In this document: in pieces, positions 2,957 through 46,575 of the stretch
Layout of the letters: the number at the start of each line of letters is the position of its first letter
Position numbering within the stretch: the stretch's first letter is position 1
Source: an uncultured bacterium
Lineage (GTDB): Bacteria > Krumholzibacteriota > Krumholzibacteriia > Krumholzibacteriales > Krumholzibacteriaceae
Length of the DNA: 64,000 bases
NCBI GenBank assembly: GCA_963747385.1
Contig: CAVVEY010000006.1
Span: forward strand, 88,118-152,117
Direction of reading: 5' to 3'
Program-made: the position numbers and the translations under genes
The notes under the pieces: generated by a model
Seen by the model: the letters and a program-made list of their open reading frames with translations, nothing else
Database searches by the model: none
What the model was told of the DNA's origin: nothing

Positions 2957-3064
2957 CGATTCCCCCCAAAAAAAATGAAGAAGCGCCGGAACTTTTTCCG
3001 GCCCGACGCGTATCAGTAATCAGAGAGCGGGTGTTTTACCCCCATCCCACAATCCCTTCTTGCG

Positions 3065-3094
3065 GATGGCGGCCTCCCCCAAAGGGCCGCCATC
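3065..3094 (-). terminator. 10-bp GC hairpin just downstream of the corrected rsgA stop
   Basis: GATGGCGGCC (3065-3074) pairs with GGCCGCCATC (3085-3094) around a 10-nt loop. There is no U-tract on the minus strand, so terminator function is uncertain. Confidence 0.3.
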
Positions 3095-3136
3095 ATCTTT
3101 TGCGTCCCGCACAACTCCGCACGAGCGCCCCCCGGC

Positions 3137-4106
3137 TCAACCCGGCCGCTTCATGCCCCGCTCGTCCGGTACGGTCTCGAGAATTCTGAGATAGCTCTCG
3201 TACCGCTCGCGGGAAACGCTCCCCCTTCTCGACCGCGTCCTTCACGGCGCAATCGGGCTCGTGGCTGTGCGTGCAGCTCGCGAATCTGCACTCCGCGCGG
3301 AAGGGGGCGAAATCCCGGAAAAAGCCGGCGAGCTTCTCTTTCGACACTCCCCAGATGCCGAACTCCCTGACTCCCGGAGTGTCGCCGAGGTATCCGCCCC
3401 GCGCGAGGGGATGAATTTCGAAATGGCTCGTCGTATGCGTCCCCTTTCCCGTCCGGGCGCTCACGCTTCCCACGGCGAGCTCGAGACCGGGCTGCATGCG
3501 CGAAATGAGCGAGCTTTTCCCGCTCCCCGAGGGTCCCGCGAATATCGAGAGCTTTCCCGCGAGCATCCGCGCCAGTTCTTCGACTCCCTCTCCCGTGCGA
3601 GCGCTCGAGCAGACACAGCGATATCCCATCGTCCGGTAAGGAGCGAGCGACGCATCGGTACCCGCGCGGGAATCGCCAAGATCCATCTTATTGACGCATA
3701 TGACCGCATCCATCGGGCCGCACGCCGCGGAGACGAGCATGCGGTCCAGGAGGCGCAGGTTCAGATCCGGCTCCTTCACCGCGAAGACGAGGATCGCCTG
3801 ATCCATATTCGCTCCGAGGATCCGGTAGCCTTTTCTCTGGGAAGGATCGGTTCGCGCCAGGATCGATCTCCGGGCTCCGAGCTCGACGATGACGCCCTGG
3901 GCCCCCCCCGCGCCTCCACCTTGCCCGAGACCGACCGTGACCGTGTCTCCGACGACGGGAAGCACTTCTTCGGGCGTGTCCCCGAGGCGAAACCGCCCGC
4001 GGAGAGAGCATCGAATTTCCCCGACGCCGCTTTCGACGAAGAAAGCGCCGCCTTTGATCCGTATGACGAGCCCCCGAGTAGTTTCCATCGTCTCCGCGGC
4101 AGGCAA
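3137..4106 (-). CDS. rsgA: ribosome small-subunit-dependent GTPase A (RsgA/YjeQ), C-terminus frameshifted in this assembly
   Basis: OB-fold N-terminus, circularly permuted GTPase motifs (NKMDL, GPSGSGKSSLI, DTPG) and a Cys-rich zinc knuckle (CRFASCTHSHEPDCAV). After EKG the track ORF runs on to 3093 as nonsense. Skipping one base of the C5 run at 3221-3225 gives the canonical tail SVSRERYESYLRILETVPDERGMKRPG, with a stop at 3137-3139. Confidence 0.85.
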
Positions 4107-4176
4107 ATTCCCTGATTCAACGGGCGAAAAACAGGCGTGCCCGAGAGTAGCAAGAAATTATTACCCAAAAAAGGTG

Positions 4177-4193
4177 AAATTGTTATACAATTT
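4177..4193. promoter_or_regulatory. 17-bp palindrome AAATTGT-TAT-ACAATTT in the rsgA/ptsN divergent intergenic region
   Basis: 7-bp perfect arms with a 3-nt spacer, about 20 nt upstream of the ptsN start in an AT-rich patch. Possible operator. No cognate factor identified. Confidence 0.3.
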
Positions 4194-4213
4194 TCGAGGG
4201 AGCATGCTATATT

Positions 4214-4690
4214 ATGAAAAGTATGGAAGCGAGCAAGCTGATTTCGTTCTTCGAAGAAGATCTTTGCATATTTCATCTCCGGTCGCGCAAGAAGATGAGC
4301 GTGCTCACGGAGATCGTGCATCATCTCGCGGTCAACAACAAGATCTCGGACGAGCACTTCATCATCGAGATGCTGAAGAACCGGGAAAGCCTCGGCAGCA
4401 CGGGGCTCGGGAACGGCGTCGCCTTCCCGCACGGGCGATCGCTCGCCATCAAGGAGCTCTCCGTTCTCTTCGCCCGCTCGGCGTCCGGAATGGATTTCGA
4501 CGCGCTCGACGGAAAGCCGACGAAAGTCTTTTTCCTTATTCTCGCGCCATCCGATAAGGGCTCCGAAACCTACCTCGCGATCCTGAGCGAGCTCATCGGC
4601 CTGATTCAGAAACCTGCGAAGCTCAAGAGCCTCTACGAGGTCGCCGACTTTCAATCGCTCGTGAAGATTCTGGAGGATAAGGATCTGTGA
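4214..4690 (+). CDS. ptsN: PTS IIA-type nitrogen regulatory protein (EIIA-Ntr)
   Basis: 158-aa ORF with the PTS_EIIA_2 pattern, including LGSTGLGNGVAFPHGRS (phosphorylatable His context). Confidence 0.8.
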   Translation: MKSMEASKLISFFEEDLCIFHLRSRKKMSVLTEIVHHLAVNNKISDEHFIIEMLKNRESLGSTGLGNGVAFPHGRSLAIKELSVLFARSASGMDFDALDGKPTKVFFLILAPSDKGSETYLAILSELIGLIQKPAKLKSLYEVADFQSLVKILEDKDL

Positions 4691-5031
4691 GAGACGAGCA
4701 TCGGATCCTCATCGCCCTTCAAGACCTCGATATCATGATCAAAGAGGTCAAGGACAAAGCTACCTCCAAGGAGCTGCAGAACCTCGGTTTCAAGCTCACC
4801 GGCATGAGCGAGCTCCAGGAGGCGAGGGAGAAGCTCGTGAAGAAGGCGCCGAAAGGACTCCTCCAGCGCTACGAAAAGCTCACCAAGCACTTCACCGTGG
4901 CGATCCTCCCCGTCACGGGAAGCCTCTGCCTCGGGTGTTTCGTCAAGCTCCCCACCTCGTTTTTCTCCGCGGTGAGCAAGAGCGAGCTCCAGACGTGCGA
5001 GAATTGCGGAAGACTGCTCTACATCCCTTGA
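4687..5031 (+). CDS. C4-type zinc-ribbon / coiled-coil protein (short COG1579-like)
   Basis: 114-aa ORF. Its GTG start overlaps the ptsN stop (GTGA). The C-terminus reads CLGC...(x22)...CENCGRLLY. Confidence 0.6.
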   Translation: MRDEHRILIALQDLDIMIKEVKDKATSKELQNLGFKLTGMSELQEAREKLVKKAPKGLLQRYEKLTKHFTVAILPVTGSLCLGCFVKLPTSFFSAVSKSELQTCENCGRLLYIP

Positions 5032-5060
5032 AGGTGCCGTGCCATAGCGTTCTTGGCGCG

Positions 5061-5095
5061 GTTCCATTCCCGAGTTTCATTCCCGTTTCATTCCC
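5061..5095. repeat. three tandem copies of an 11-mer GTTYCATTCCC
   Basis: gttccattccc (5061-5071), gtttcattccc (5074-5084), gtttcattccc (5085-5095). They lie immediately upstream of a putative -35 for the large regulator gene. Confidence 0.6.
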
Positions 5096-5104
5096 AAGTT
5101 TCTC

Positions 5105-5133
5105 TTGATAATTTCGCCATCTTGATGTAAAGT
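5105..5133 (+). promoter_or_regulatory. putative sigma-70 promoter (TTGATA-17-TAAAGT)
   Basis: -35 at 5105-5110, 17-nt spacer, -10 at 5128-5133, about 40 nt upstream of the ATG at 5175. Confidence 0.35.
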
Positions 5134-5174
5134 ATTTTAACCAGGCAAGAAACTTAACAAATACAAGGGTTTTC

Positions 5175-5867
5175 ATGTACGGCGAGAAAGCAAAGGATGC
5201 GCTCAGCGCCAGATATTCCGTCAGGAAAACGCTCGGAGAATATCCTCCCTGGCACGGATACGGTGTCGCCGATTCGTTGAGCGAACGGGAGTATCTCCTC
5301 TTCTCCTTCGATGCGCCTTCGGGCGTCTCCCTGTCGATCGAAGATCTGAGAATGCGGGATTATCTCTTCTCCCGTTCCGGGAAGCTCGCGCCGGCGGTCG
5401 TCTCGCTCCAGCAGGCGGACGGTTCGATCACGTTCCTTCTCCCTCGCGCGGATATCGTGCCCCTGGCCGACGCGCTTCCGGGGATGAAACCGGCCGCGGT
5501 CGCCGAAATCATGCGCACGATCATATCCTACGTCCTCGCGCGCTTCGGGGAAGGACTCTGTTTCTGCAATCTCAATCCCGAATCGTTCTATATGGCGAAC
5601 GACGAGCCGGGCATACTCCCCGTCGCATACCTTCTTCCGGGTGATTGCCTGCGCCGCATGCCGGAGGGCGCTTCCGGTCCCGCCGGCGCTCCGGACGCGC
5701 CTTTCGGGGATCTTCGCTCTCTGGGAAAAGCGCTCTCGATCTTCGCCCCTTGCCTCGATCGCGAAACCGCCGGAAGGATCGAACGCCTCGCGGTGCGGCT
5801 TCAGTCGCTCGCCCCGGATACGACCGCAGCCGAGATCCGCTCCGTGCTCGACGAGCTCGCCGGATGA
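5175..5867 (+). CDS. fragment: N-terminal protein-kinase-like domain with degenerate catalytic loop
   Basis: 230-aa ORF. It has kinase-like spacing, but the catalytic-loop position reads FCNLNPESF instead of HRDLKPxN, and there is no obvious VAIK lysine or DFG. Confidence 0.5.
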   Translation: MYGEKAKDALSARYSVRKTLGEYPPWHGYGVADSLSEREYLLFSFDAPSGVSLSIEDLRMRDYLFSRSGKLAPAVVSLQQADGSITFLLPRADIVPLADALPGMKPAAVAEIMRTIISYVLARFGEGLCFCNLNPESFYMANDEPGILPVAYLLPGDCLRRMPEGASGPAGAPDAPFGDLRSLGKALSIFAPCLDRETAGRIERLAVRLQSLAPDTTAAEIRSVLDELAG

Positions 5868-6598
5868 CTCGGGAGAACCGCTCCCGAACGGGCACTTCTT
5901 CCCGGCGAGATCTTTCGGGGCGGCCCCGCCGTCCGCCCCCGTGCGCGCGATGAAGCACGCGGCCCTCAGGGCGCGCGAGGGGGAAAAGCAGCTCGTGATC
6001 GTCACCGGCGCGCGCGGCGGCGGGAAAACGCACTTCCTGGAATTCGTCGCGGATCGCCTCGCGAGCGAATGGGGTTTCCGGCACGGGCGTATCGCGGGGG
6101 ACCTGGCCCTCTACCAGGATCCGGCCGAGCGGGAGACGGGCGATCGGGACGATTTTCTCATCGTCGACGATCATGCGGATGAACCGCTGCTCGCGTGCCA
6201 CGTCGTCGAGTACGTGTGCCAGGCGCTCGAGCGCTGCAATCTCGCCGTGATCTCGCTCAACGAGGACGCGCCGCTCCTTGCGCGGCACGTCAGGGAAGAA
6301 GCGGCCAAACGTGCGATCGAGGTCAGGGAGATCAAGCTCCCCGCCCCGGGCCAAGGCCGGAACGGCCGGGGAAGCGGCACGCCCGCCCCGCGTTTCCTCG
6401 ACGCCCTCTCCGGCGAGGAACGATCGGTTCTCGGATTTCTCGCCGTATTCGGATTCGAAGTCCCGCTCTCGTTCCTGCTCGGGATTTTCGCGCCGGAGGA
6501 GAACGGCATTTACGCGGCGCTGCAGAATCTCGTCGCGCGCGGTCTCGTGAAATCGCGCGCCGAGACTTCGAGCCTCTCCGGCGACGACCATCGCGATC
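5866..6598 (+). CDS. fragment: P-loop NTPase (AAA_16/STAND-like)
   Basis: Frame 1 of ORF 5641..6807. Walker A is LVIVTGARGGGKTHFLEFV and Walker B-like is FLIVDDHADE. Confidence 0.55.
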
Positions 6599-6894
6599 GT
6601 GTACTCGCCGGCGAGCGGCTCGGCGGCGCGGGAGGTCCTTCGAAGCCTGCCGGCGGAAAGGAAAGGAATCGATCCACAGGAGCATCGCGCGCCTCCTCGC
6701 GGAGAAGCGCAACGCCCCTTCGCTCTATACCTTCTTCCATCTCGTCCGGAGCGGCGCGCGAGAGGAGGCCGCGCTCAAGGGCCTCGAGATACTCCGATCC
6801 TTCATGAAACGGAAGAAGCTCGCCGCGTTCAGTTGCTTCAACGCGAGCTACATGGAGCGAGAAGCTCGACCGGGCGCTTCCCGTCGACACGCGG

Positions 6895-8090
6895 TATCAA
6901 CCTCTACCTCGAGCTCGGCAACCACTTCTCGCTGACCGGAAACATGGAACGGGCGGAATGCTTGTTCCACCAGTGCCGCGAAGAAATCGCCCGCGAGGAA
7001 GAACCTTCGCGCTTCCGGAAGCTCGCGGTCGAGGCGACGAGGCGCGAGAGCGAGATTCTCGAGAAGAGGGGGGAATTCCTCAAGGCGGAGAAGCTCCTCG
7101 AAAAGGCGCTCGACACTCACGGGGAACAGCTCCTTTCGAGCGAGCGCGCCAAGCTCTACAACGACATCGCCTGGATCCACTATCGGCTCGGGGCGTTCGA
7201 CCGTTCGTGGGAGCACTGCCTCGTCGTGCACAAGCTGCTCGACGAGAAGCAGAATCCGGTCGAGATCGCGCAGGCCTACAACCTCATGGGCACGATCAAC
7301 TGGAACCGGAGCCGGTACGACGACGCGATACTCTGCTACAAGCGCTGTCTCGCGCTTCGCGAGGAGTGCAACGACGAAATCGGCATCGCTTCGAACTACA
7401 ACAATCTCGGTCTCGTGTACCGCTCCCTCGGCATGGTCGCCGAAGCGCTCGAATGCTTCACGAAGAGCATGGAAATCAAGAAGCGGCACGAGAATCTCCC
7501 CGGGCTCGCCGCCGCGCACCTCAACATGGCCCTCGTGTACCTCGACCTCGAGCAGACCAAGGACGCCGAACGGAGCTGCATCACCGCCCTGCGCCTCGCG
7601 GAGGAGATCGGGAACCAGCAGCTCCTCGCCGAATCGTACGGCACGATGGGCGAGATATGGTTTCTCCAGGGCAATTACGAGAAAGCGCAGAGCTGCTTCG
7701 CGAAGGATCTGCACCTTTGCGACAAGACGAAATCGCTCAGGGAACGAGCCGTCGTGTACCGGAAGCTCGGCGATCTCAACTTCGCGCTCGGCAAGCTCCC
7801 CGAGACGAAGGAGCTTCTCGCCCAGGCTCGATCCCTCAACCAGAAAATCGGTTCCCGTCTCGAAACGGCGCTTCTCAACCTGCTCGAGGGGAAGATACTT
7901 CTCGCCGAAGGGAAGCGCGAGGACGGCCGTTACAAGCTCGAAGGGGCAAGCCTCGAGCTGTCGCTTCTCGGGAAAAAGAACACGGCTTCCGCCGTCGCCG
8001 CCGACATCGGAAACCTCTACCTCGAAGAGGGAAACGAGCCGCTCGCCCGCGAGTATCTCCTGCGGGCGATGTCCCTCGTCGCCGGAGGAG
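6895..8090 (+). CDS. fragment: TPR repeat region
   Basis: Frame 2 of ORF 6599..8278. It contains many 34-aa TPR-like units (AKLYNDIAWIHYRLGAFDRSWEHC, AQAYNLMGTINWNRSRYDDAILCYKRCL, ASNYNNLGLVYRSLGMVAEALECFTKSM, and others). Confidence 0.7.
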
Positions 8091-8470
8091 AGCAGGCCCC
8101 TCGGCAGGCTCGGCTCTCTTCAGGACGCGCTCGACGCGCGATCTCCCCTCGCCCGCGACCAGATCGTCGAACGACTCGGACCGCTTTCGAGCGCTTTGCA
8201 GGCTCGCCTCCCTCATGCGGACGGCTCGCGATCAGGAAACGCTTCGGTCGACGATCGTCGAGACGGCCCGGCGGATAACCGCGATGGATCGCGCGGCGTT
8301 TCTCACGAAAGCCGAAGGCCACGACTCGTTCCGCATCGCGGCCTCGAGCGGCGGCTTCACGGCGGGAAGCATGCTCGCCGACCGGAACATCGGCGCCGTT
8401 CTCTCCATGACGCTCCGGCTCGGCTATCCGCTCGACGTTTCGCGCACGACGATTCCCGAGGGCAAGGTCG

Positions 8471-9510
<1,040 letters not shown>

Positions 9511-9699
9511 CGCGCGCGACGATCGAGGAAACGATCGACACCCTTCTCGAGAACGTCGAGCTTTCGACGGGGGACCCGATCCTGCCCCGGATCGAAGGGA
9601 TGATCGTGAACAAGGTCGTGGAGAAGATCGGCGATAAAACGAAGGCGGCCGCGGTCCTCGGCATATCGAAACCAACCGTCTACGCGAAGCTGAAGAAAT

Positions 9700-10820
9700 A
9701 TGGAAAGAACAAGAGCTCATAAACGCCCGCCGCTTCTCGTCCCGGCGCTCGTGGTCCTCGCCGCCCTGATCGCCGTCTATCTCCCTCGTTCGCTCGCGCA
9801 TGGCGGGGTCCGAGGGCTCGCGGAAGGCGCCCGCGCCGGGCATCGCTCTCAGTGTTTTCGTCACCAATCAGCTCGTCGGCTACCGCGAGCCATGCGGTTG
9901 AAAGAAGCACAAGCAATGCGGGATGGCCCGGTGGGCTTCCCTTGTCGAACAGAGACGAAGCGAGAGAGCGGTGCTCGTCGTCGACACGGGCGATTTTTCG
10001 CTGCCGCCGGACACGAGGCAGCGCGATCTGAAGGAACGCTATTTCTTCGAGGCGATGAAGCTCCTCGGTTACGACGCTATCGGCGTCGGCGAGTTCGAGA
10101 CACGGGCCGGGCTCGAGGGGCGCCTCGCGGCCGCCGAACGCTACGGACTCCCTCTCGTGAGCTCGAACATCTTCGATCGAACCCTGAAAAAGCCGGTGGC
10201 CACCGAATCGATCGTCAGGGATATCGGAGGCGCCCGAACGCTCTTCGGCCGCAGGGGAGCGCTGCGCGTCGGAATCTTCTCGGTCGTTCTTGCCTTCTTT
10301 TATCTACCGGGACGGCGCGAATGACCGGCACAGATACAACGTCGTCGATCCGAAACTCTCGGCGCTCGCGGCGGCGACGAATCTGCGCGCGGGGGGGTGC
10401 GATTTCGTCATCGCGGTGAGCCACCTCGGATGGCAGAAGAGCCTCGAGCTCGCCCGGGAAGTGCCGGGGATAGATCTCGTCCTGAACGGGCATCGCGAGC
10501 ACCCGAGAACGCACCAGGAGCGCGTCGGCTCGACGGTCGTGGTCGATACGGGGGAAAAGGAATGGTCGTTCACCGAAGTGTCCGTCACCGTCGACGGCGA
10601 TTCGCTCGTCGTCGTCGCCTCGGACGTCTGCGGCGCGGCCCTCTCGCTGCGCGAGGATCCGCGCTTCACCGGACTTCAGAAGAGATACGCCGATGAGCTC
10701 AAACGGCCTTCCTCGAGCGCGGCGAAGAACCTGAGGCCGGTGAATCGGCGAGATTGTCGCGTGATGATAAAAAGAATGGTGGGGACTGTAGGATTTGAAC
10801 CTACGACTTCTATCGTGTGA
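9700..10820 (+). CDS. exported metallophosphoesterase / 5'-nucleotidase-like protein with degenerate metal motifs, an in-frame UGA at 9899-9901, and 2-3 frameshifts in the assembly
   Basis: N-terminal signal/TM segment (KRPPLLVPALVVLAALIAVYL, frame 1). Frame 2 begins at about 9805: GIALSVFVTNQLVGYREPCG-TGA-KKHKQCGMARWASLVEQRR...VLVVDTGDFS...AIGVGEFE. Frame 3 begins at about 10300: FIYRDG...VSHLGW...DLVLNGHREH. The 3' end is uncertain because the open frame runs into the antisense tRNA-Val. Confidence 0.6.
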
Positions 10821-10851
10821 GGATAGCACTCTACCGCTGAGTTAAGCCCCC
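10777..10851 (-). tRNA. tRNA-Val (anticodon CAC)
   Basis: Manual cloverleaf: acceptor GGGGGCT/AGTCCCC, D stem ACTC/GAGT, anticodon stem CTATC/GATAG with loop CT-CAC-AC, T arm GTAGG-TTCAAAT-CCTAC, discriminator A, encoded CCA. Confidence 0.9.
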
Positions 10852-11201
10852 ACGCATATGGGATAGTATAAAACCCGGCGCCTAATTGCAAGCCCCGGCA
10901 TCGTCCGGATCGCCGGCTCGCCGGGATCCACGGGGTCTCCGGGCCCGCCGTCTCTCTCCCTCTCCTCGTTCTCCCTCATAACGGCCTTCGCCGCGTCGAG
11001 ATCGCTCTCCTTGACGAAGAGTTTCACCTGTCCGAGGCCGTCGACCGTGAACGGCAGAATACTCGGAGTCACGCCCGTTCGGACGGCCACTTCGATTCCT
11101 TCGGACTCGAGCATCCCCTTGAGAACCTGGGCCTCGAAATCCCCCTGCACCTTCGCGAGCTCGACGAGCTTCTCGTCCCGCTCCTCTTTGGAATTCTCCA
11201 T
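10842..11201 (-). CDS. DUF2007-like small protein (putative signal-transducing fold)
   Basis: 119-aa ORF. The N-terminal 70 aa (LVELAKVQGDFEAQVLKGMLESEGIEVAVR...VKLFVKESDLDAAKAVM) look like the family. The Pro/Gly-rich tail overlaps tRNA-Val by 10 nt, so the C-terminus is doubtful. Confidence 0.5.
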   Translation of the reverse strand: MENSKEERDEKLVELAKVQGDFEAQVLKGMLESEGIEVAVRTGVTPSILPFTVDGLGQVKLFVKESDLDAAKAVMRENEERERDGGPGDPVDPGEPAIRTMPGLAIRRRVLYYPICVGA

Positions 11202-11289
11202 CGTTTTCCTCCCGGCCTTATGATAATACTACCTGCTGGATGAACGGGCAAGACAATGCTGTTCGGGCCGCGAAGCGGGAAAGGCCCCG

Positions 11290-12162
11290 ATGAACCTCGG
11301 CGCGCACATGTCGATCGCGGGGGGTATGCACCGGGCCCTCGAGCGAGGTCGCTCGATCGGGTGCAACGCGGTGCAGCTCTTCGTGAAAAACACGAACCAG
11401 TGGAGAACGCGGGACCTCGACCCGGACGAGATCGCGCGCTTCAGGGAAGCAGCGGGAGCGTTCGCGCCCGATTTCATCCTGGCGCATTCGAGCTATCTCG
11501 TGAATCTCGCTTCGCCGGATCGGAAGATTCTCGAGCGGTCGCTCGAAGGCTTTCTCGAGGAGATGCGGCGCTCGCGCGAGCTCCAAATCCCGTACCTCGT
11601 CGTTCATCCGGGAAGCCACCGCGGCGCGGGGGAAGCGGCGGGCGTGAAGCGGATCGCCTCGAGCCTCGACGAGATCCTCTCCGCGACGGGCGTCCCGGGG
11701 CCGGAGATTCTGCTCGAGACGACCGCCGGCCAGGGGGATTCGCTCGGGACCACGTTCGACCAGCTCGCGCGCATCATCGGCGCGGTCCGCGCAAACGGCT
11801 CGATCGGAGTGTGTTTCGACACCTGCCACGTATTCGCCGCGGGATACGATCTGCGAACGAAACGGGCGTACGAAGAGACGATCCGGGCTTTCGATCTCGC
11901 GCTCGGACTCGGGAGGCTCAAGGCGTTTCACGTGAACGATTCGAGGAAGGAGCTCGGAAGCAGGGTCGATCGGCACGCGCATATCGGCGAGGGCGCGCTC
12001 GGGCTCGAGGCATTTTCGTTTCTCATGAACGACGAGCGCTTCTTCGACCGCCCCATGGTGCTCGAAACGCCCAAGGGGACGGACGATTCGAACGACATAC
12101 GAAACCTCGCCCTGCTGCGGGGGCTCCGCCGCCCGTCGAAACGGCGAGGATCATCCTCCTAG
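11290..12162 (+). CDS. nfo: deoxyribonuclease IV (endonuclease IV)
   Basis: 290-aa intact ORF: GAHMSIAGG, AVQLFVKN, YLVVHPGSH, LLETTAGQG, CFDTCH, HVNDS, DRHAHIGEG. Confidence 0.9.
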   Translation: MNLGAHMSIAGGMHRALERGRSIGCNAVQLFVKNTNQWRTRDLDPDEIARFREAAGAFAPDFILAHSSYLVNLASPDRKILERSLEGFLEEMRRSRELQIPYLVVHPGSHRGAGEAAGVKRIASSLDEILSATGVPGPEILLETTAGQGDSLGTTFDQLARIIGAVRANGSIGVCFDTCHVFAAGYDLRTKRAYEETIRAFDLALGLGRLKAFHVNDSRKELGSRVDRHAHIGEGALGLEAFSFLMNDERFFDRPMVLETPKGTDDSNDIRNLALLRGLRRPSKRRGSSS

Positions 12163-13191
12163 CTCGGCGGCGAGCTTCCAGTACGGATCGGTCACCGGAT
12201 GCTCCAGCTCCGTCGCCACGCCCCCCCGGATCACCCTCAATCCCTCTTTTTCCGGCACGATCTCGCCGCAGCTCGCGCTCGCGATGCCCTCGGCCGCAAG
12301 GGCGCCTGCAAGCTCGTCGACGTCGCGGCCGTCGACGGCGACGATGAGCGTGCCCTCGCTGATCGAACAGAAGGGATCGAAGCCGAAGATCTCCGCGGTC
12401 TGCTTCACGACCGGCTGGACCGGAATCAGATCCTGCTCGATCCGCAATCCATATGCCCCCGCCTTCGCCATCTCGTAGAGCCCGCCCCAGACGCCGCATT
12501 CGGTCGCGTCATGCATGACATGAACCCCCTTGAACGTCCGCGCGATCGCGCAATCGTCCAGCACGCTCATCTGCCTGAACATCGCGGCGGCTTCCCTCTG
12601 GAAGGCTTCCCCTCCCGCTTCGACGAATTTCCCCGGGAACAGCGCGGCGAGGAGCCCCGTCGTCTCTATCGCCGGTCCCTTCGTTATCAAGATCTCGTCC
12701 CCGATTTTCGCCCGGTGGGGACCCCTCAAATGCCTCTCGTCGCCGACCGCGATGGCCGTCGCCCCGCCGACCATCGGATAGTTGCATCCCGTGTACCGCG
12801 CCGTATGCCCCGTGACGACGCTGATTCCATAACGCTGCGCTTCCTCGTGCACGGCGCTCCACAGCTCCTCGAGCTGATCTTCGGTCGTTTCCGGCGGAAG
12901 GTTGAGATCGATCGCGAGGTACTTCGGCGTGAGCCCGGAGACGGCCACGTCGCATACGACGATGTGAAAACCGAACCAGGCCGCTCTCGCGAATCCGAGC
13001 GACGGAACGATGAAGAACGGATCGGTCGACAGCGCGATGACCCTGTCGCCGATTCTGACGACACCGAAGTCGACGCCGTGACGCGGGCCGATCACGACGC
13101 TATCGTCCTGAGCGCCGAGACGGGGGTAGATCACGCGATCGAAAAACTCCGGATGGATCTTGCCGAGATCGGGCAATTTCAAAGCGTTCAT
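12151..13191 (-). CDS. AIR synthase-related protein (PurM/HypE/SelD superfamily)
   Basis: Start at MNALKLPDLGK (ATG 13191-13189), preceded by GGAGGGAGG. It reads DDSVVIGPRHGVDFGVVRIGD...STDPF...GHTARY...MHDATECG. It lacks the SelD GxGCK motif. The track ORF's upstream 320 aa is antisense to trxB and spurious. Confidence 0.7.
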   Translation of the reverse strand: MNALKLPDLGKIHPEFFDRVIYPRLGAQDDSVVIGPRHGVDFGVVRIGDRVIALSTDPFFIVPSLGFARAAWFGFHIVVCDVAVSGLTPKYLAIDLNLPPETTEDQLEELWSAVHEEAQRYGISVVTGHTARYTGCNYPMVGGATAIAVGDERHLRGPHRAKIGDEILITKGPAIETTGLLAALFPGKFVEAGGEAFQREAAAMFRQMSVLDDCAIARTFKGVHVMHDATECGVWGGLYEMAKAGAYGLRIEQDLIPVQPVVKQTAEIFGFDPFCSISEGTLIVAVDGRDVDELAGALAAEGIASASCGEIVPEKEGLRVIRGGVATELEHPVTDPYWKLAAELGG

Positions 13192-13497
13192 GGGTCCTCC
13201 CTCCGCAGGTTCTAACCTGATCAGGTTCAACGGGTCCCCGGATCTCCTCCAGGTTCTCAGCCCCGGCCGGATCGATCGACGTGAGGGGCTCCCCGAACGG
13301 TATCGTTCGTCGCCGAACGCCGCAAGTATCCGCGAGAACGCGTCGTCTGTCAAGCCGCGAGCTTGCCGATCGAGCGGCGCTGAAACGCGGGCCGTCGTTC
13401 CGACGGAACCCCTCGGTCCCGCGTATCCACGTTTTCCCTTGTCCTCGCCCTTTGCAGACTCTATACTTCGAAGCTCAGACTCACGGGAGGATTTTCC

Positions 13498-14431
13498 ATG
13501 TACGACGTCACTATCATCGGATCGGGTCCCGCGGGCCTCACCGCGGCGATCTACACGCGCCGCGCCGAGCTCGCGACGCTCGTCGTCTCGGGCGCGCAGC
13601 CCGGCGGACAGCTCACGATCACGTCGGAGGTTGAGAATTTTCCCGGATTCCCCGAGGGCATCCAGGGTCCGGAGCTCATGGATCGGATGCGGAAGCAGGC
13701 GGAGAAGTTCGGCGTCGAATTCGACCTCGGAGAGGTCACGGCGGTCGATCTCGAAGCGAAGCCGTTCAAGATCACGATCGGGAAGAAGGCCGTCGAGACG
13801 CGCGCCGTCATCATCGCGACGGGCTCGGCGAGCCGCTGGCTCGGGCTCGAATCGGAGGCGAAGCTCCGCGGCAAGGGAGTCTCGGCGTGCGCGACGTGCG
13901 ACGGATTCTTCTTCACCGGAAAGCACGTCGCCGTCGTCGGGCGGCGGGGACGCGGCGATCGAGGAGGCGACCTTCCTCACGAGATTCGCGAGCCGCGTGA
14001 CCGTCGTGCACCGGCGCGACGAGCTCCGCGCGTCGAAGGCGATGCAGAAACGGGCGCTCGACAACCCGAAAATCGACTTCGAATGGAATTCGACCGTCGA
14101 GGAGATTCTCGATCCGGCGAAGAACAAGGTCACCGCGCTCGTCCTCAAGAACGTCAAGACGGGCGAGAAGAAAGAGCTCCCCGTCGACGGCGTCTTCGTC
14201 GCGACCGGCCATGAGCCCGCGACGGGCCTGTTCAGGGGAAAGATCGATCTCGACGAAAAAGGCTACATCGTGACGCGCGGCACGCGGACGTCGGTGAACG
14301 GCGTCTTCGCCGCGGGAGACGTGCAGGACCCGCGCTATCGCCAGGCGATATCGGCCGCGGGAAGCGGATGCCAGGCGGCGATCGAAGCGCTCAAGTTCCT
14401 CGAAGGCGAGGACGCGCTGCCGGGCTGGTGA
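13498..14431 (+). CDS. trxB: thioredoxin-disulfide reductase, frameshifted in assembly
   Basis: [19 protein letters not shown]...[11 protein letters not shown]...KHVAVVG, then a frame change at the GGG run 13939-13941. It continues [32 protein letters not shown]...[10 protein letters not shown]...[14 protein letters not shown], with a stop at 14429-14431. Confidence 0.9.
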
Positions 14432-14436
14432 ATCGC

Positions 14437-15187
14437 ATGGAGACAATTCGCAGGAAGACGCGCTCTCGTCACGGGAGGCTCCCGCGGCATCGGCCGCGCG
14501 ATCGCCCTCAGGCTCGCGAGCCTCGGCGCCGACGTCGCCGTCAACTACGTAAAGAACGATCAGGCCGCCGGGGAGACGGCGCTCGAGATCGAGCGGCTCG
14601 GGCGGCGGGCTCTGCGGGTCAAAGCGGACGTCTCGGAGCCGAAAGAGGTGAAGAGCCTCTTCGCGGCCGCGAAGGAGGCGTTCGGCGGGCTCGACATCTT
14701 CGTCTCGAACGCCGTCTCGGGCGTTCTCGGCCCCGCGACGCGCATCGGAAAATTCGGCTGGGACCTCGCCCTCAACGCGAACGCCCGCGCGTTCCTGCTC
14801 GGCGCGCAGGAAGCGGTGAAGCTCTTTCCCGAATCGGGAGGAAAGATCGTCGCGGTCTCGTCGATAGGAAGCTTCTCGTGCCTGCCCGGCTACGCCGCGG
14901 TGGGCGCGAGCAAGGCCGCTCTCGAAACGCTCGTCCGGTATTTCGCGAAGGAGCTCGCTCCGCGCGGCATCAACGTGAACGCCGTATCCGGCGGACCCGT
15001 CGACACCGCGGCGCTCGACTATTTTCCCGAAAAGGAAAAGATCCTCGAGGCGTGGAAGGATCGCACGCCCGCCGGGCGCATCGCGAAACCCGAAGAGATC
15101 GCCGCGGTGGCCGTGTTTCTTCTCTCGGACGAGGCCTCCTGGATCCAGGGGCAAACGATCGTCGTCGACGGCGGCCTCACGCTCTAG
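14437..15187 (+). CDS. fabL: short-chain dehydrogenase, FabL-like enoyl-ACP reductase; start region frameshifted
   Basis: The track shows only 14648..15187. The same frame stays open back to the trxB stop and reads [34 protein letters not shown], but has no start codon. ATG 14437 joins it if one base of AATT (14445-14448) is removed. It resembles my memory of B. subtilis FabL along its whole length (SSxxS...[12 protein letters not shown]). Confidence 0.7.
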
Positions 15188-15190
15188 CGC

Positions 15191-15712
15191 TCACGCGCCG
15201 TCCAGGTGACGGCCTCCCTTGCGCTCCATCCACTCCTGCGGATCGGTGAAATATTCGAGCGTGTCCTCGAGCGAGAGCCGGTGCTCGCGCTCCATCGACG
15301 CGAGAAGCGTGAAGAACCGCTTCTCGGCCTTGTCCTTGGCCTCGGCGGCGAGCTTCTCGTAGAAGTTCTCCCCCTTGTGCTCGAAATCGATCGCCGCCTT
15401 GACCGCGGCTATATCGTCGTCGTCGCTCTCGGGGGAATCCGTCGCCTCTTTCACGAGACGGCCGAGCGCTTCCGTGACCCGCGTCGGGATTTCGATCGAG
15501 AAACCGTCGGGCCACTTGTTGCGCTCCTCGAGCTTCGTGTGGAGCTCGACGAGCCGCTTGTAATGCTCGTTCTCGTCGGCCGCGATCGATTCGAACATCT
15601 GCCTTCCGAGGACGTCCTTCGTGCGCTTTGCGTGCGCCAGATAGAAATCTCGCTCCTTCTCCTCGTTCGTGAGCGCGAGCTTGAGAGCTTCCAGCTTTTG
15701 TACGCCGTCCAT
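15191..15712 (-). CDS. rubrerythrin/ferritin-like diiron protein
   Basis: 173-aa ORF with two ExxH-type helices (ADENEHYKRL and ASMEREHRLSL). Confidence 0.65.
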   Translation of the reverse strand: MDGVQKLEALKLALTNEEKERDFYLAHAKRTKDVLGRQMFESIAADENEHYKRLVELHTKLEERNKWPDGFSIEIPTRVTEALGRLVKEATDSPESDDDDIAAVKAAIDFEHKGENFYEKLAAEAKDKAEKRFFTLLASMEREHRLSLEDTLEYFTDPQEWMERKGGRHLDGA

Positions 15713-15740
15713 TGCGATGAACCTCCCTGGGCTTCATGCC

Positions 15741-18504: not shown

Positions 18505-18702
18505 CTCCCGCGCGGGTCCTCGCGCTGGTTGCACCCCGCGAGTGCTCGTTCGCTTCGCTCGCTGCGCCCCTCGCGGGGGCCCCACCAGCGCCACCCGCTA
18601 TTCGGGGTGTATCATACGCTTGGCGACGCTTCAATTCATTTCCCTTGACAGCGGGCGCGGCAGGTTTTTATCCTTCCCTTTCCCGAACGAGGAGGAATAA
18701 TC

Positions 18703-19854
18703 ATGGATTGGACCTTCACTGACGAGCAGAAAATGCTCAGGGATATGGTCCGCAAGTTCGTCGCGAACGAGATCAAACCCATCGCGGAAAAGATCGACCA
18801 GGAAGAGAAGATACCGAAAGAGCTCATCGGAAAGATCGCGGAGCTCGGACTCCTCGGAGTTTCGTTTCCCCCCGAATACGGCGGCTCCGGCATGGGCGAG
18901 ACGGGCTACTGCATCGTCCAGGAGGAGATCGCTCGGGGATGCTCCTCTACCGCGACCTTCATCGGCGCCCATCAGAGCATCGGAAGTACGGGCATTTACC
19001 TGTTCGGCACCGAGGAACAGAAACAGAAATACCTCGTGCCGCTCGCCGAGGGGCGCAAGATCGCCGCGTTCGCGCTCACCGAATCGAACGCCGGCTCCGA
19101 CGCGTTCAACAGCGAGTCGACCGTCGAGGACAAGGGGGATCACTGGCTCCTCAACGGACGCAAGACCTTCATCACGAACGGGAGCTTCGCCGACGTCTTC
19201 ACCGTATTCGCCAAGCACCTGGGCGGGAAGGCCGACGGCAAGGTCTCGAGCTTCATCGTCGAGAAGGGCTCTCCCGGATTCTCCATCGGCAAGATCGAGC
19301 ACAAGATGGGCATCCGCGGCTCCGAAACGGCCGAGCTCGTCTTCGAGGACGTGAAGATCCCGTACGAGAATCTTCTCGGGCGCGCGGGACGCGGGGTCAT
19401 CGTCGGCATGCGCATACTCGCGTGCGGGCGTCTCGGCCTCGGCGCCGCGACCCTCGGCGCCGCGAAGGAGGCGCTCGCGCTGAGCGCAGCTCATTCGAAG
19501 GAGCGCGTTCAGTTCGGGCACAAGATCTCGCAGAACCAGGCGATCCAGTGGATGCTCGCCGACATGGCGACCGAGATCTACAACATGGAATCGATCGTCT
19601 ACCGCACCGCGTGGATGTACGATCAGGGGATGGACGTGACGAAGGAATCGTCCATGGTGAAGCTCTATTGCTCGGAAGCGCTCGATCGGATCGTCGACAC
19701 GGCGCTTCAGGTGCACGGCGGATACGGCTACATCCGCGAGTACGCGATCGAACGGATGTACCGCGATTCGCGCATCAACAGGCTCTTCGAAGGGACGAGC
19801 GAGATCCAGCGCCTCATCATCGCGCACGAGGTGCTCCACGCGAGACAGATCTAG
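18703..19854 (+). CDS. acyl-CoA dehydrogenase
   Basis: 383-aa intact ORF with typical ACAD motifs (FALTESNAGSD, GGYGYIREYAIERMYRDSRI..LFEGTSEIQ). A TTGACA box at 18645-18650 lies upstream. Confidence 0.9.
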   Translation: MDWTFTDEQKMLRDMVRKFVANEIKPIAEKIDQEEKIPKELIGKIAELGLLGVSFPPEYGGSGMGETGYCIVQEEIARGCSSTATFIGAHQSIGSTGIYLFGTEEQKQKYLVPLAEGRKIAAFALTESNAGSDAFNSESTVEDKGDHWLLNGRKTFITNGSFADVFTVFAKHLGGKADGKVSSFIVEKGSPGFSIGKIEHKMGIRGSETAELVFEDVKIPYENLLGRAGRGVIVGMRILACGRLGLGAATLGAAKEALALSAAHSKERVQFGHKISQNQAIQWMLADMATEIYNMESIVYRTAWMYDQGMDVTKESSMVKLYCSEALDRIVDTALQVHGGYGYIREYAIERMYRDSRINRLFEGTSEIQRLIIAHEVLHARQI

Positions 19855-19893
19855 CGGCACGGACTCATTACCGCCCGCAGGGGTCGTCGATAG

Positions 19894-19928
19894 GCGCGAG
19901 GCCGGCAGGGCCTCGCGCTTTCCGTTTC
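19894..19928 (+). terminator. intrinsic terminator (10-bp GC stem plus TTTCCGTTTC)
   Basis: GCGCGAGGCC (19894-19903) pairs with GGCCTCGCGC (19909-19918) around a 5-nt loop, followed by a T-rich tract. It sits between the convergent acd and comM genes. Confidence 0.6.
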
Positions 19929-21463
19929 AGCTCCCCTCGAGAAACCTCGGCGCGCGGTATTGCACCGCTTCGGCGAGATGCCGCGCCGCGATCTTCTCCG
20001 ATGCGTCGAGGTCGGCGATCGTGCGCGCGACCTGGATGACGTTGCGCCGGCTCCGCGCGCTGAAGAGGAGCCTCCGCTGCGCCGCGGAGAGGAGCTCGCG
20101 CGCTTCCGCCTCCATGAAACTCAGCGATTCGAGATCGGACACGGGCATGTCGGCGTTCCGCTCGATGCCGGGCCTGGCCTGGAAACGCTCCCGCTGCATG
20201 TCGACCGCGCCGAGCACTTCCCGCCGCATTATCTCCGAGCTCATCCCCGACTGTCCCGATTCGCTCTCGAAATCCCGGGGATCGACCGGCTTCACCGGCA
20301 CGTGCAGGGCGATGCGATCGATGAGAGGTCCCGAGATCTTGGCGAGGTATCGCCTGATCGAGATCGGCGTGCATCGGCAGGGATGGCCGGACGCGCCCGC
20401 GTAGCCGCACGGGCACGGGTTCATCGCGGCGACGAGCTGGAAGCGCGCGGGATAGGCGAACGAGGCGTTCGCTCTCGATATGACGATCCGCCCTTCCTCG
20501 AGGGGCTGCCGCAGACTCTCGAGAACGTTACGCTTGAACTCGGTGAGCTCGTCGAGGAAGAGCACTCCGTTGTGCGCGATCGTGATCTCGCCCGGAGAAG
20601 CGCCTCTCCCGCCTCCGACGATACCGGCGTCGCTCGCCGAGTGATGCGGAGCCCTGAACGGCCGCTCGAAGCTCAGCGCGGCGCCGTTCCCGTTGCCGGA
20701 GACGCTCGCGATCTTCGCGTTCTCGAGCGCCTCCTCCTCGCCGAGGGGAGGCAGGATCGTGGGAAGCCGTTTGGCGAGCATCGTCTTCCCGGAGCCGGGA
20801 GGTCCGACCATGATGACGTGATGCCCCCCCGCGGCGGCGATCTGCATCGCCCGCTTCGCCGCGGCCTGCCCCATGATCTGCGCGTAGTCGAGATCGAACC
20901 TGCGCGTTTCCGCGCGCCGGCGAGGCGCCGGGCCTCTCGACGGCGCGCGGCGCGCCGCCTTCGAGCACGCGAAGCGCCTCGCGAAGGTCGGCGCAGGGGA
21001 CGACCTCGATTCCCTTCACCACGGCGGCCTCGGCTCCGTTCGCCTCGGGAACAAGCATGCGGCCGCAGCCGCGATCGCGCGCGTAGAGCGCGATCGGGAG
21101 CGTTCCCTTGACCCGTTTGAGCCGCCCGTCGAGCGCGAGCTCCCCGAGAATGATCGACTGCGGCGAAACGGCTCCCGAGGTCTGGCCGCTCGCCGCGAGA
21201 ATGCCGATCGCGATCGGCAGGTCGAAGGCCGCCCCTTGCTTGCGCACGTCGGCGGGCGCGAGGTTCACCGTGATCCGTTTCTGGGGGAGCTTGAAGCCGT
21301 TGTTCTTGATTGCCGACGTGACGCGCTCGCGGCTCTCGCGGACGGCCGCGTTCGGAAGCCCGACTATCGTGAATGAAGGAAGTCCCGTGGCGAGATCGAT
21401 CTCGACCGTAACCCCGAACCCGTCGATCCCCAACACCGCACCGGAACGAATTTCAGCGATCAT
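19927..21463 (-). CDS. comM: Mg-chelatase-like ATPase ComM/YifB, frameshifted in assembly
   Basis: The N-terminal fragment (MIAEIRSGAVLGIDGF...LAPADVRKQGAAFDLPIAIGILAA) and C-terminal fragment (FDLDYAQIMGQAAAKRAMQIAAAGGHHVIMVGPPGSGKTMLAKRL...) join with a +1 shift at about 20915-20930. Confidence 0.85.
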
Positions 21464-41262: not shown

Positions 41263-42807
41263 TTACCGCCGTATCTTGCCGCTCGTGACGAGTTGTTCGA
41301 CGTACGCGACGACGTCCTGATCGAATTTCTCGCTCTGGTTCTTGAGCTGATCGATGCTCTCCTCGAGAGAAAACGCCCGCCGGTAGGGACGGTCGCTCGT
41401 CATGGCGTCGAAGCTGTCTGCGACCGCGACGATGCGCGCGCCGAGCGATATTTCGTTTCCCTTGAGATGATCCGGGTAGCCCTTTCCATCGAGCCGCTCG
41501 TGGTGGTGGCGGACGAGGTCGCAGGCCGATTCGAGAAATTTCATATTCTTGATGATGTTGGCGCCCACCTCGGGATGGCTCCGGACAATGTCCCATTCCC
41601 GCTCGGTGAGCTCTCCCGGCTTGTTGAGGATTTCCTCGTATACGCCGAGCTTTCCGATGTCGTGGAGCGCCGCGCCGAAGCACACGATCTCCAAGTCGCG
41701 CTTCGAGAGCCGCATCTCCTCGGCGATCATGCGCGCATACTCGGCGACGCGGTCCGTATGGCCGCGCGTGTAGGAATCCTTCGCCTCGATCGTCGAAACG
41801 AGCACCTTGATCGTCGAGAGGTAGGTCGCCTGCAGCTCCCCGTAGAGACGCGCGTTCTCGAGACCGGTCGCGGCGGACGTGCATATCGACTTGAAGAGGT
41901 CGAGCTCGTCGGTGACGTATTCCTGACGGTTCACCTTTCCGCCGATGAACACGATCCCGATGAGCCGCGATTTCACGATGAGCGGATACCCGTATTCGAA
42001 TCCGAACCGGGTCAGGAAATTCGCCTCTCGTTTCGCGTCTTCCGGGAATCCCTCGTCGCCAAGCCTGACGCATTCGTGTTTGCCGAGGAGGTATTGCGAA
42101 AGGGCGATCTCGCGCGAAAGTCTCACCGACTGGAGCACGCTGTTCGATACGCCGCTTCCGCCCGCGTAGGAAAGATACTCGTCCATCTCGTCGAAGGCGT
42201 AGAACAGCGCGACGGAGCTCACGCCGAGCTGCCCGATGACGGTGAGGCAGAAGACGCGAATGAGATCCTCGGGATCGCGGAGCCGGTTGAGATCCTGGCT
42301 CAAACCCGAAAGGGAACGCATATCGAGAACCTTCTTCTTGAGCTCGCGATTGACCCGGGTGTAATCGGCCTGCCCCCGCTGCACCTCCCCCTCGAGCTGC
42401 AGGTTCTGCTCGCAGAGATTCTTTTTGCGGCGCGACTGGGCGAGATAGTTTTCGACCTTGACGAGCATTTCCTTGAGGGAAAACGGCTTCCTGAGATAAT
42501 CCTGGGCGCCGGCGCGAAGCCCCCTGGCCATCGAATCCTGGACGGAGTTCGCCGAGATCATAATGACGGGCACGTCGCGGTGAACGTCCCTCGCGCGAAT
42601 CGTATCGCACACTTCGAATCCGTCTTTCTTCGGAAGCGCGACGTCGAGGACGACGAGGTCCGGCTGGAAGCGGTCGTACTTCGCGAGCGCCTCGTCGCCG
42701 TCCGAGGCCGACTCGGTCTCGTATCCCTTGTTCCGGAGACATTCGGTGAGTATCTCTATGACGTTCGGGTCGTCATCGACGACCAGTATGCTCCCGTTCA
42801 CGCTCAC
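41263..42807 (-). CDS. response regulator: REC, coiled coil, GAF, intact HD-GYP
   Basis: REC (ILVVDDDP, DLVVLDVALPKKDG, YLRKPF). HD-GYP motifs are all present (GHTDRVA, AALHDIGKLGV, HHHERLDGKGYP, VADSFDAMTSDRPYR). Confidence 0.85.
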   Translation of the reverse strand: MSVNGSILVVDDDPNVIEILTECLRNKGYETESASDGDEALAKYDRFQPDLVVLDVALPKKDGFEVCDTIRARDVHRDVPVIMISANSVQDSMARGLRAGAQDYLRKPFSLKEMLVKVENYLAQSRRKKNLCEQNLQLEGEVQRGQADYTRVNRELKKKVLDMRSLSGLSQDLNRLRDPEDLIRVFCLTVIGQLGVSSVALFYAFDEMDEYLSYAGGSGVSNSVLQSVRLSREIALSQYLLGKHECVRLGDEGFPEDAKREANFLTRFGFEYGYPLIVKSRLIGIVFIGGKVNRQEYVTDELDLFKSICTSAATGLENARLYGELQATYLSTIKVLVSTIEAKDSYTRGHTDRVAEYARMIAEEMRLSKRDLEIVCFGAALHDIGKLGVYEEILNKPGELTEREWDIVRSHPEVGANIIKNMKFLESACDLVRHHHERLDGKGYPDHLKGNEISLGARIVAVADSFDAMTSDRPYRRAFSLEESIDQLKNQSEKFDQDVVAYVEQLVTSGKIRR

Positions 42808-42821
42808 GTATCGTTATCCTC

Positions 42822-44621: not shown

Positions 44622-44646
44622 CGGATCGCTCCCTGCTCCAGAGCGC

Positions 44647-44889
44647 TCAATCGAGGACCTTGACCACCTCTTCTTCCTGAGCGAGCCAACGATCGAGAAC
44701 GCTCCTCAGGAATCTCCATTCGCTTCCGACCTTCTTCGCCGGTATCTTCCGTTCCTTGGCCAACCGGCAGACGGTCTTCACATGCATCTTGAGGTACTCC
44801 GCCGCCTCGACCGACGTCATCACTTCGACTGCGTCGTCATGGCCTCCGATGATGATACTGCCGTAATCGTGCTGATGCTGATTGGACAT
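44647..44889 (-). CDS. excisionase/MerR-superfamily helix-turn-helix protein (HTH_17-like)
   Basis: MTSVEAAEYLKMHVKTVCRLAKERKIPAKKVGSEWRFLRSVLDRWL. The start is taken at MSNQHQ (RBS GAGGTGGAG). An upstream start at 44961 would overlap the previous gene by 8 nt. Confidence 0.7.
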   Translation of the reverse strand: MSNQHQHDYGSIIIGGHDDAVEVMTSVEAAEYLKMHVKTVCRLAKERKIPAKKVGSEWRFLRSVLDRWLAQEEEVVKVLD

Positions 44890-44953
44890 CTCCACCTCTC
44901 TCCGTTGGTGGCCCGACCTCGCCCCTGCCCGAGAGATCGGTCCGCTCACTGTG

Positions 44954-46564: not shown

Positions 46565-46575
46565 GAGGCGTCACC

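Follow-up and report, generated by a model that had tools for sequence, protein, structure and literature searches.

A gene on the forward strand of a 64,000-nucleotide stretch of DNA from an uncultured bacterium (contig CAVVEY010000006.1 of assembly GCA_963747385.1; the whole stretch is called the window below) is interrupted by an in-frame UGA at 9899-9901. It is very probable that this UGA is a genuine selenocysteine (Sec) codon served by a recoding hairpin, in a gene for a short relative of the UshA-like PCGU proteins that has been kept across Candidatus Krumholzibacteriota. We infer the insertion of Sec from the conservation of the UGA, a constrained hairpin of the selenocysteine insertion sequence (SECIS) type, the alternation of Cys and Sec in homologs, and the kinship with a known selenoprotein family. 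The complete gene covers 9700..10743 and has ~347 codons after the removal of three inserted bases that are specific to the window. Its ends, the ATG at 9700 and the stop TGA at 10741-10743, were set by comparison with L049, L050, and L002, in which the gene is intact, and the full-length orthologs contain 334-357 codons.

The ortholog set consists of 32 loci, found by scanning one genome for each species, and most of them carry the label Candidatus Krumholzibacteriota or Krumholzibacteriia; with the window added, there are 33 sequences, including 32 independent assemblies, most of which are metagenome-assembled genomes (MAGs). The codon at the Sec column is TGA in all 33 sequences, even though the pairwise identity among the orthologs is 32-91% and the 30 full-length loci fall into 19 clusters at 75% identity. 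The original prediction, made from the letters of the window, placed the TGA in frame 2 with coding sequence on both sides, and this description holds: the flanks read GIALSVFVTNQLVGYREPCG before the UGA and KKHKQCGMARWASLVEQRRSERAVLVVDTGDFS after it. The corresponding flanks in the orthologs are G-Y-R-E-P-C-G and K-K-x-x-x-x-G-M-A-R-W-A-S, respectively. In the loci that hold the whole gene, the order of the elements is a basic and hydrophobic N-terminal segment, S-[IV]-F-x-T-x-x-L-x-G-Y-R-E-P-C-G, the TGA, K-K-x-x-x-x-G-M-A-R-W-A-S-L, and the remainder of the protein, all in a single open frame apart from the TGA. The E-P-C-G-U motif, encoded at 9887..9901 with the TGA read as Sec, is conserved across 30 orthologs in its E (29), P (30), C (29), G (26), and U (30).

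The true terminator of the same gene served as a control. It varies among 31 loci, being TGA in 19, TAG in 7, and TAA in 5, so the invariant TGA at the Sec column behaves unlike an ordinary stop codon; at the same time, the 19 loci that terminate with TGA indicate that UGA is still a stop in these genomes. The nucleotide entropies at the three codon positions are 0.67/0.40/1.24 for the 18 codons before the UGA, 0.92/0.97/1.29 for the 6 codons between the UGA and the hairpin, and about 1.0/0.8/1.4 for the rest of the gene, a pattern that indicates coding periodicity on both sides of the UGA.

The hairpin is located at 9920..9941 and is encoded by the G-M-A-R-W-A-S-L codons. It is contained in the minimum free energy (MFE) structure that RNAfold gives for 9899-9958, GGGA(U)GGCCC-GGU-GGGCUUCCC, and consists of a 4-bp stem, a bulged U9924, a 5-bp stem, and an apical GGU loop. 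The isolated hairpin has a free energy of -12.5 kcal/mol, begins 18 nt past the UGA, and presents its first loop base 28 nt from the UGA. The bacterial SECIS consensus comprises a loop of 3-9 nt, an upper stem of 4-16 bp, a G in the first two loop positions, a distance of 16-37 nt from the UGA, and an MFE of -7.5 kcal/mol or lower (PMC13188914). The SECIS-like character proposed in the original prediction is borne out in each of these respects, with a GGU or AGGUG loop, an upper stem of 4-5 bp (9 bp in total), and a distance of 28 nt; the free energies lie between -8.6 and -15.2 kcal/mol in 32 of the 33 sequences, on the permitted side of the energy limit. The proposed likeness to the fdhF element of E. 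coli is also apparent when that element is folded for comparison, giving two 3-bp stems separated by a bulged U and closed by a GGUC loop. Both elements are hairpins within the coding sequence just past the UGA, with a bulged U in the 5' strand and a loop that starts with G-G-U. However, the stems are 3 + 3 bp in fdhF and 4 + 5 bp here, the loop is GGUC instead of GGU or AGGUG, and the distance from the UGA is 18 nt instead of 28 nt; in addition, binding of SelB to the present element is a prediction.

The constraint on the hairpin is seen most clearly at synonymous positions. The entropies of its 8 codons are 0.34/0.08/0.32, so that the third position varies as little as the first. For well-conserved residues with at least 4 synonymous codons, the synonymous codon entropy is 0.48 bits in the hairpin (n = 5) vs 1.57 elsewhere in the gene (n = 51; Mann-Whitney p = 2.5e-4). 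For example, the Gly immediately 5' of the UGA is encoded by all four synonymous codons, and the Gly at the start of the hairpin by GGG in 28 of 30 sequences. Across the hairpin alignment, 92.6% of the cells are paired, and the substitutions that do occur leave the stem standing: position 9937 is U or C opposite G9925 and never A or G, position 9941 is C or U opposite G9920, a change of C9929 to A widens the GGU loop to AGGUG with no other effect, and a change of UCC to ACC in two loci switches the bulge between A9923 and U9924 while keeping 9 bp.

The most divergent ortholog, L016 (NATK01000058.1, labelled Candidatus Latescibacteria 4484_7; region 5120-5179 of L016), keeps the TGA and carries another hairpin, CGCCG-GUG-CGGCG, which is located 19 nt after the UGA and is 9 nt closer to it than in the other sequences. 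This hairpin contains no AUG, and the next in-frame start is codon +55. A hairpin of different sequence and without a start codon argues for a structural rather than a sequence requirement and against an arrangement in which the UGA is an ordinary stop, the upstream part of the gene yields a 66-residue membrane peptide, a 272-residue protein is re-initiated at the AUG at 9923, and the hairpin serves termination-reinitiation or has some other role. Such an arrangement would agree with the presence of the AUG in 32 of the 33 sequences and with the absence of visible Sec machinery in the window and in the flanks of the 32 loci. It would also agree with the databases: a protein search with the repaired translation returned 59 close relatives with 41-90% identity, and 53 of them are annotated from M-A-R-W-A, that is, from the Met eight codons past the UGA. 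A start call just past a UGA is, however, what gene callers usually produce when they fail to recognize a Sec codon. The conservation of the AUG is explained by the hairpin itself, since A9923, the bulged U9924, and G9925 are all parts of it, and a cytochrome-fused homolog has CUG (Leu) at this point. An ordinary stop would not be expected to avoid TAA and TAG at the Sec column over 19 divergent clusters while the terminator of the gene switches freely, nor would a spacer be expected to keep coding periodicity and a conserved K-K over the seven codons from the UGA to the AUG. In L016, re-initiation at codon +55 would fall past conserved motifs. Furthermore, the Cys homologs and the Arg variants described below are single polypeptides, the segment before the UGA is predicted to form β-strand 1 of the fold, and the 272-residue product would have no export signal. 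We therefore regard re-initiation as very improbable.

Reading the UGA as Sec is also supported by the homologs. The original prediction was that related 5'-nucleotidase-like proteins of anaerobes carry E-P-C-G-C at this point, with a Cys in the column of the UGA. The Cys was found, in a P-C-G-C motif, in P0060, P0070, P0080, P0091, P0114, P0161, P0164, and P0182, but these proteins have T, K, S, or A in place of the predicted E. They share 26-33% identity with the Krumholzibacteriota proteins, and many of them possess a C-terminal multihaem cytochrome domain. The homolog comparison that had been proposed as a check thus places Cys or Sec at the UGA column, the Sec form being represented by the DNA of P0130 (L057; GCA_031431875.1, JANPEF010000082.1). 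This cytochrome-fused homolog reads A-P-C-G-TGA-H-T-P-K-G-G-L-A-R-R-A-S and carries the hairpin CUGGCCC-GGC-GGGCCAG on the same G-x-A-R-x-A codons as the hairpin in the window. The L057 gene is annotated as two open reading frames, 5797-5964 and 6001-7149 (55 and 382 residues), so that P0130 is truncated at the N-terminus. Many of the database relatives of ~380 residues (P0117-P0133) start just past this point, and these may be mis-split Sec forms too.

Among the NCBIfam models, NF041198 "UshA_like_PCGU", described as a UshA-like (seleno)protein, gives by far the best match (E = 1e-31, 110 bits). Proteins of this kind are known in the literature as the CxU selenoprotein family "COG0737 UshA-like"; an ocean-metagenome study reported 76 Sec and 92 Cys sequences of the UshA-like family, and NF041198 is given as its model by later reviews (PMC2398784, PMC9312934, PMC13188914). 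The Krumholzibacteriota proteins combine homology to the N-domain of UshA and the 5'-nucleotidases with a C-G-U motif, as in the COG0737 UshA-like family, and the E-P-C-G-U at 9887-9901 follows a degenerate motif I, as the P-C-G-U/C motif does in NF041198. On comparison of the sequences, this established selenoprotein family shares with them the UGA, the motif, and the placement of the putative recoding hairpin. The match is limited to positions 18-266 of the 519 positions of the model. Positions ~356-518, which are matched in P0164, correspond to a C-terminal multihaem, c554-like cytochrome domain, and no CxxCH motif occurs in any of the 32 sequences inspected, so this domain is not present in the Krumholzibacteriota proteins. 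Compared with the UshA-like PCGU proteins, the Krumholzibacteriota proteins share the 5'-nucleotidase-type N-domain, the P-C-G-U/C motif at the same column past the degenerate motif I, the N-terminal export signal, and the SECIS hairpin on the same G-x-A-R-x-A codons. In contrast, they begin with a signal anchor, not with an obviously cleavable signal peptide, they lack the multihaem domain, and they form a clade that is nearly confined to Candidatus Krumholzibacteriota and lies behind a sigma-54 activator gene. They fall outside the NF041198 equivalog in the strict sense and are short, divergent relatives of the UshA-like PCGU proteins. The second-best NCBIfam match is the thiosulfohydrolase SoxB (TIGR04486, 58 bits), which is likewise periplasmic, has the same fold, and acts on a sulfur substrate, not a nucleotide. 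However, 58 bits compares with a cutoff of 550, and SoxB retains its dimanganese site and lacks a CxU motif; a link of the Krumholzibacteriota protein to sulfur chemistry would be speculation.

If the UGA is read through, it might be read by something other than the Sec apparatus: a near-cognate tRNA (Trp, Cys, or Arg) might decode it, or UGA might be reassigned in this lineage. In favor of such decoding, no Sec machinery is on record for the Krumholzibacteriota phylum, and no literature linking Krumholzibacteriota with selenocysteine or selenium was found in the papers searched. Moreover, two relatives have Arg at the Sec column. In P0026 (L054), the codon is CGA, one change from TGA, the hairpin is intact, and the frame of the signal anchor is broken. 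In P0029 (L055), the codon is CGC, the Cys of the motif is lost, and a GCA codon for the Ala in the hairpin breaks the G9925 pair. The changes in these two variants follow the pattern expected once the recoding constraint is lifted. A third variant, P0044, has Asn at this column, as judged from the protein sequence only. P0026, P0029, and P0044 are rare relatives and may be decaying copies. A reassigned UGA is at odds with the 19 of 31 loci in which this very gene normally terminates at UGA, and read-through by a near-cognate tRNA or by reassignment leaves unexplained why synonymous sites are frozen 21-43 nt downstream. The loop sequence, the bulge, and the spacing of the hairpin are instead typical of SelB-dependent elements, and Cys and Sec alternate at this column in an established selenoprotein family. 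Read-through without Sec therefore deserves little credence.

Several observations weigh against Sec as the decoded residue. ARAGORN detected no tRNA-Sec in the 64-kb window and the flanks of the 32 related loci, the remaining genome lying outside this scope, and tblastn with E. coli SelA, SelB, and SelD revealed no selA, selB, or selD in the same regions. The sel genes are normally located elsewhere in a genome. The 60-nt stretch that holds the hairpin is only weakly more stable than its shuffles (z = -1.45), and Rfam scans over 9870-9990 gave no SECIS match, either with the gathering thresholds or with E values allowed up to 10. Neither RNAalifold nor explicit pair counting identified a double compensatory substitution within the clade, so there is no covariation support. 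The score of the window protein and L002 on NF041198, 110 bits, is far below the curated cutoff of 275, which P0080 passes with 281 bits, and an ordinary 5'-nucleotidase, P0061, also reaches 110 bits. No Cys form was found at the Sec column within the Krumholzibacteriota clade, the sense-codon variants being only Arg, Arg, and Asn. Finally, the CGx loop has low confidence (about pLDDT 49) in the structural model described below, in which it reads CGR. Some of these points determine where the weight of the argument lies. With the weak z-score, one sequence is unconvincing alone and the weight rests on the comparison with relatives; the hairpin sequence is too conserved for covariation to show, and its support comes from the suppressed synonymous variation instead; and with P0061 at 110 bits, the argument rests on the motif and the hairpin rather than on the profile score. 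No other gene with a conserved in-frame TGA was seen in ~500 kb of related loci, which yielded only the selenoprotein gene and off-frame artefacts.

The copy in the window is split over the three frames, frame 1 holding the signal anchor, frame 2 the body, and frame 3 the last 150 codons. Alignment with L049 and L050 (92% nucleotide identity) and with L002 shows additional single bases in the window at 9788, 10289, and ~10732-10734, and one more at 10753 past the stop. The inserted G at 9788 shifts frame 1 to frame 2, and the inserted C at 10289 shifts frame 2 to frame 3; both are probably assembly or sequencing artefacts. The third inserted base (10732..10734) is a T or an A, the alignment being ambiguous, and it masks the true stop at 10741-10743, so that the open frame runs on into the tRNA-Val gene. 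Removing the inserted bases restores one frame from the ATG at 9700 to the TGA at 10741-10743; the relatives end with K-N-R-D-R and a stop. The original prediction had seen neither the three frame-breaking insertions in the gene nor the family already named as NF041198 or COG0737. About 20 single-base insertions are scattered across 2976-15729, none of them in homopolymer runs and with almost no deletions among them, and they also break the sigma-54 activator gene and trxB; no such insertions were seen in 18589-20852. The insertions look like the product of an assembly or sequencing error process rather than decay of the selenoprotein gene. Three frame-breaking insertions and a TGA within 1 kb might suggest that the window copy is a pseudogene or that the TGA is a miscalled TGC or TGT, but the TGA recurs in 32 independent assemblies, most of them MAGs, in genes that are otherwise intact, which rules out both a base-call error and a decay mutation. 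The insertions extend to neighboring genes in a manner that fits an error process better than targeted decay. A pseudogene or a miscalled TGA is therefore most unlikely.

To describe the fold of the protein with the putative Sec, an AlphaFold2 model was built on P0026, the Arg variant, as a stand-in for the Sec protein (mean pLDDT 88.6, pTM 0.89). Foldseek matched the model to the N-domains of E. coli UshA, CpdB-type enzymes, and YfkN with query-normalized TM-scores of 0.66-0.75 and E values of about 1e-18, and PDB sequence matches to 5'-nucleotidase-type proteins had E values of 4e-11 to 1e-4. In the model, the residues that precede the Sec position make up the first β-strand of the domain core, and hence both sides of the UGA would belong to one domain. 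No Pfam family scored above threshold for the window protein, and there is no C-terminal nucleotide-binding domain (PF02872), as the protein ends after the N-domain. The periplasmic 5'-nucleotidases and 2',3'-cyclic phosphodiesterases, such as UshA (1oid/1ush), the CpdB-type enzymes (5eqv/3jyf), and B. subtilis YfkN (3gve), thus share an N-terminal calcineurin-like domain fold with the Krumholzibacteriota protein. In contrast to these enzymes, the Krumholzibacteriota protein has no C-terminal substrate-binding domain, its metal-ligand and catalytic His residues are replaced and unconserved, and a Cys-Gly-Sec is inserted past motif I.

The degenerate metallophosphatase motifs that the original prediction pointed out are confirmed by alignment to the Thermus 5'-nucleotidase 2z1a. 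TNQLVG (9863..9880), in the place of motif I (D-x-H-G), lies over TNDTHA, and GVGEFE (10082..10099), in the place of motif III (G-N-H-E), belongs to a G(E/F)xE pattern (G-E-Y-E) that lies over GNHE. Across 30 orthologs, the Asp column of motif I contains E, Q, G, D, or N, the His column contains A, K, N, and other residues, and the Asn and His columns of motif III are variable. The bridging Asp is present in 19 of the 30 orthologs, the His of motif IV in 20, and the His of motif V in 17, whereas Cys233, Asn156, and Asp95 are invariant. The set of conserved dinuclear-metal ligands and catalytic His of motifs I-V that marks an active metallophosphoesterase is therefore not found. As the canonical metal ligands are unconserved while E-P-C-G-U and Cys233 are conserved, the CxU loop is the likely reactive center, probably a selenenylsulfide redox site.

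The original prediction described the protein as exported, and the N-terminal sequences agree with this. The hydrophobic segment PPLLVPALVVLAALIAVYLP at 9727..9786 (in frame 1 in the window), with K/R before it, is predicted to be a signal anchor or an uncleaved signal peptide. Each of the 30 full-length relatives has a 19-residue N-terminal window with a mean Kyte-Doolittle value of at least 1.84 (mostly > 2.5), so that a transmembrane-like segment is present in every one, generally with K/R and a net positive charge before it. The segment would act as a signal anchor, with the domain facing the periplasm.

Taken together, these features suggest the following course of events. The gene at 9700-10743 would encode a membrane-anchored protein of ~347 residues, the body of which is predicted to be periplasmic and to adopt the N-terminal metallophosphatase-domain fold of the 5'-nucleotidases. 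When the ribosome meets the UGA of codon 67 (9899-9901), the hairpin at 9920-9941, 18 nt downstream, would present its bulged U and GGU loop, which are expected to bind SelB-GTP-Sec-tRNA(Sec). The SelB complex would then deliver Sec in place of release, and the codon would be decoded as selenocysteine. The product would carry a Cys-Gly-Sec (CxU) directly after the site of the lost D-x-H metal-binding motif. The insertion of Sec, the binding of SelB, the export topology, and the redox chemistry are all proposed on the strength of sequence comparison and modeling.

The selenoprotein gene belongs to a conserved pair. In 30 of the 32 loci (L002-L033), a 1512-residue sigma-54 activator with TPR, GAF, AAA+, and helix-turn-helix (HTH) domains directly precedes the selenoprotein gene, and the AAA+ domain is encoded on the same strand ~440-490 nt upstream. 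The 3' part of the activator gene in the window (AAA+, HTH) is located at 8645..9722 on the forward strand, as judged from the Pfam domains in the 1512-residue ortholog of its product. The activator gene ends with a stop codon at 9720-9722, which sits 20 nt inside the selenoprotein gene, an overlap of about 23 nt. A tRNA-Val(CAC) gene at 10777..10851 on the reverse strand is convergent and directly downstream, and it marks the end of the transcription unit. In the related loci, a tRNA-Val is downstream of the gene in 10 of 32 and immediately after it in 8. No cytochrome gene was found near the selenoprotein gene.

Elsewhere in the window, two AIR-synthase-family genes were considered as SelD and rejected. 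The gene at 62092-63120 adjoins hypF, and the gene at 12151-13197 scores below the selD cutoff and follows a thiamine pyrophosphate (TPP) riboswitch. This riboswitch, at 13180-13305 on the reverse strand (60.6 bits, with a gathering score of 54.3), is directly upstream of the 12151-13197 gene on the same strand. The latter falls under the NCBIfam cutoffs for HypE, ThiL, and SelD and may be an unrecognized thiamine-related kinase. At the window edge, 62092-63997 on the reverse strand holds hypE-like (AIRS, AIRS_C) and hypF-like (HypF_C_2) genes, which point to a [NiFe] hydrogenase maturation system in the organism; the hydrogenase itself is not in the window. A signalling cluster occupies 41263-46567 on the reverse strand and includes a response regulator with GAF and HD-GYP-type HD_5 domains, a protein with STAS and HD_5 domains, and a protein with a CheW-like domain.

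A broader reading, which we put forward only tentatively and consider rather doubtful as a whole, is that of a phylum-wide selenoenzyme behind a sigma-54 activator, in which the dinuclear metal center has been abandoned for a Cys-Gly-Sec loop, possibly acting with Cys233. It would represent new redox chemistry on a metallophosphoesterase scaffold without the cytochrome domain, as well as the first evidence of Sec-UGA decoding in Candidatus Krumholzibacteriota. Neither the recoding mechanism nor the protein family is new, and the current understanding is not overturned.

The Sec reading would correct a systematic annotation error for the clade. The close relatives from this clade in the data set are all either cut to the part after the UGA or are rare variants without the Sec codon, and the curated NF041198 model does not catch the Krumholzibacteriota proteins; because of the truncated annotation, the databases lack both the export signal and the motif that is probably at the active site. 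The reading would also imply selenocysteine decoding in the uncultured phylum Candidatus Krumholzibacteriota. A compact, cytochrome-free UshA-like selenoprotein with an adjoining conserved sigma-54 regulator may be an easier system in which to study the function of the CxU center.

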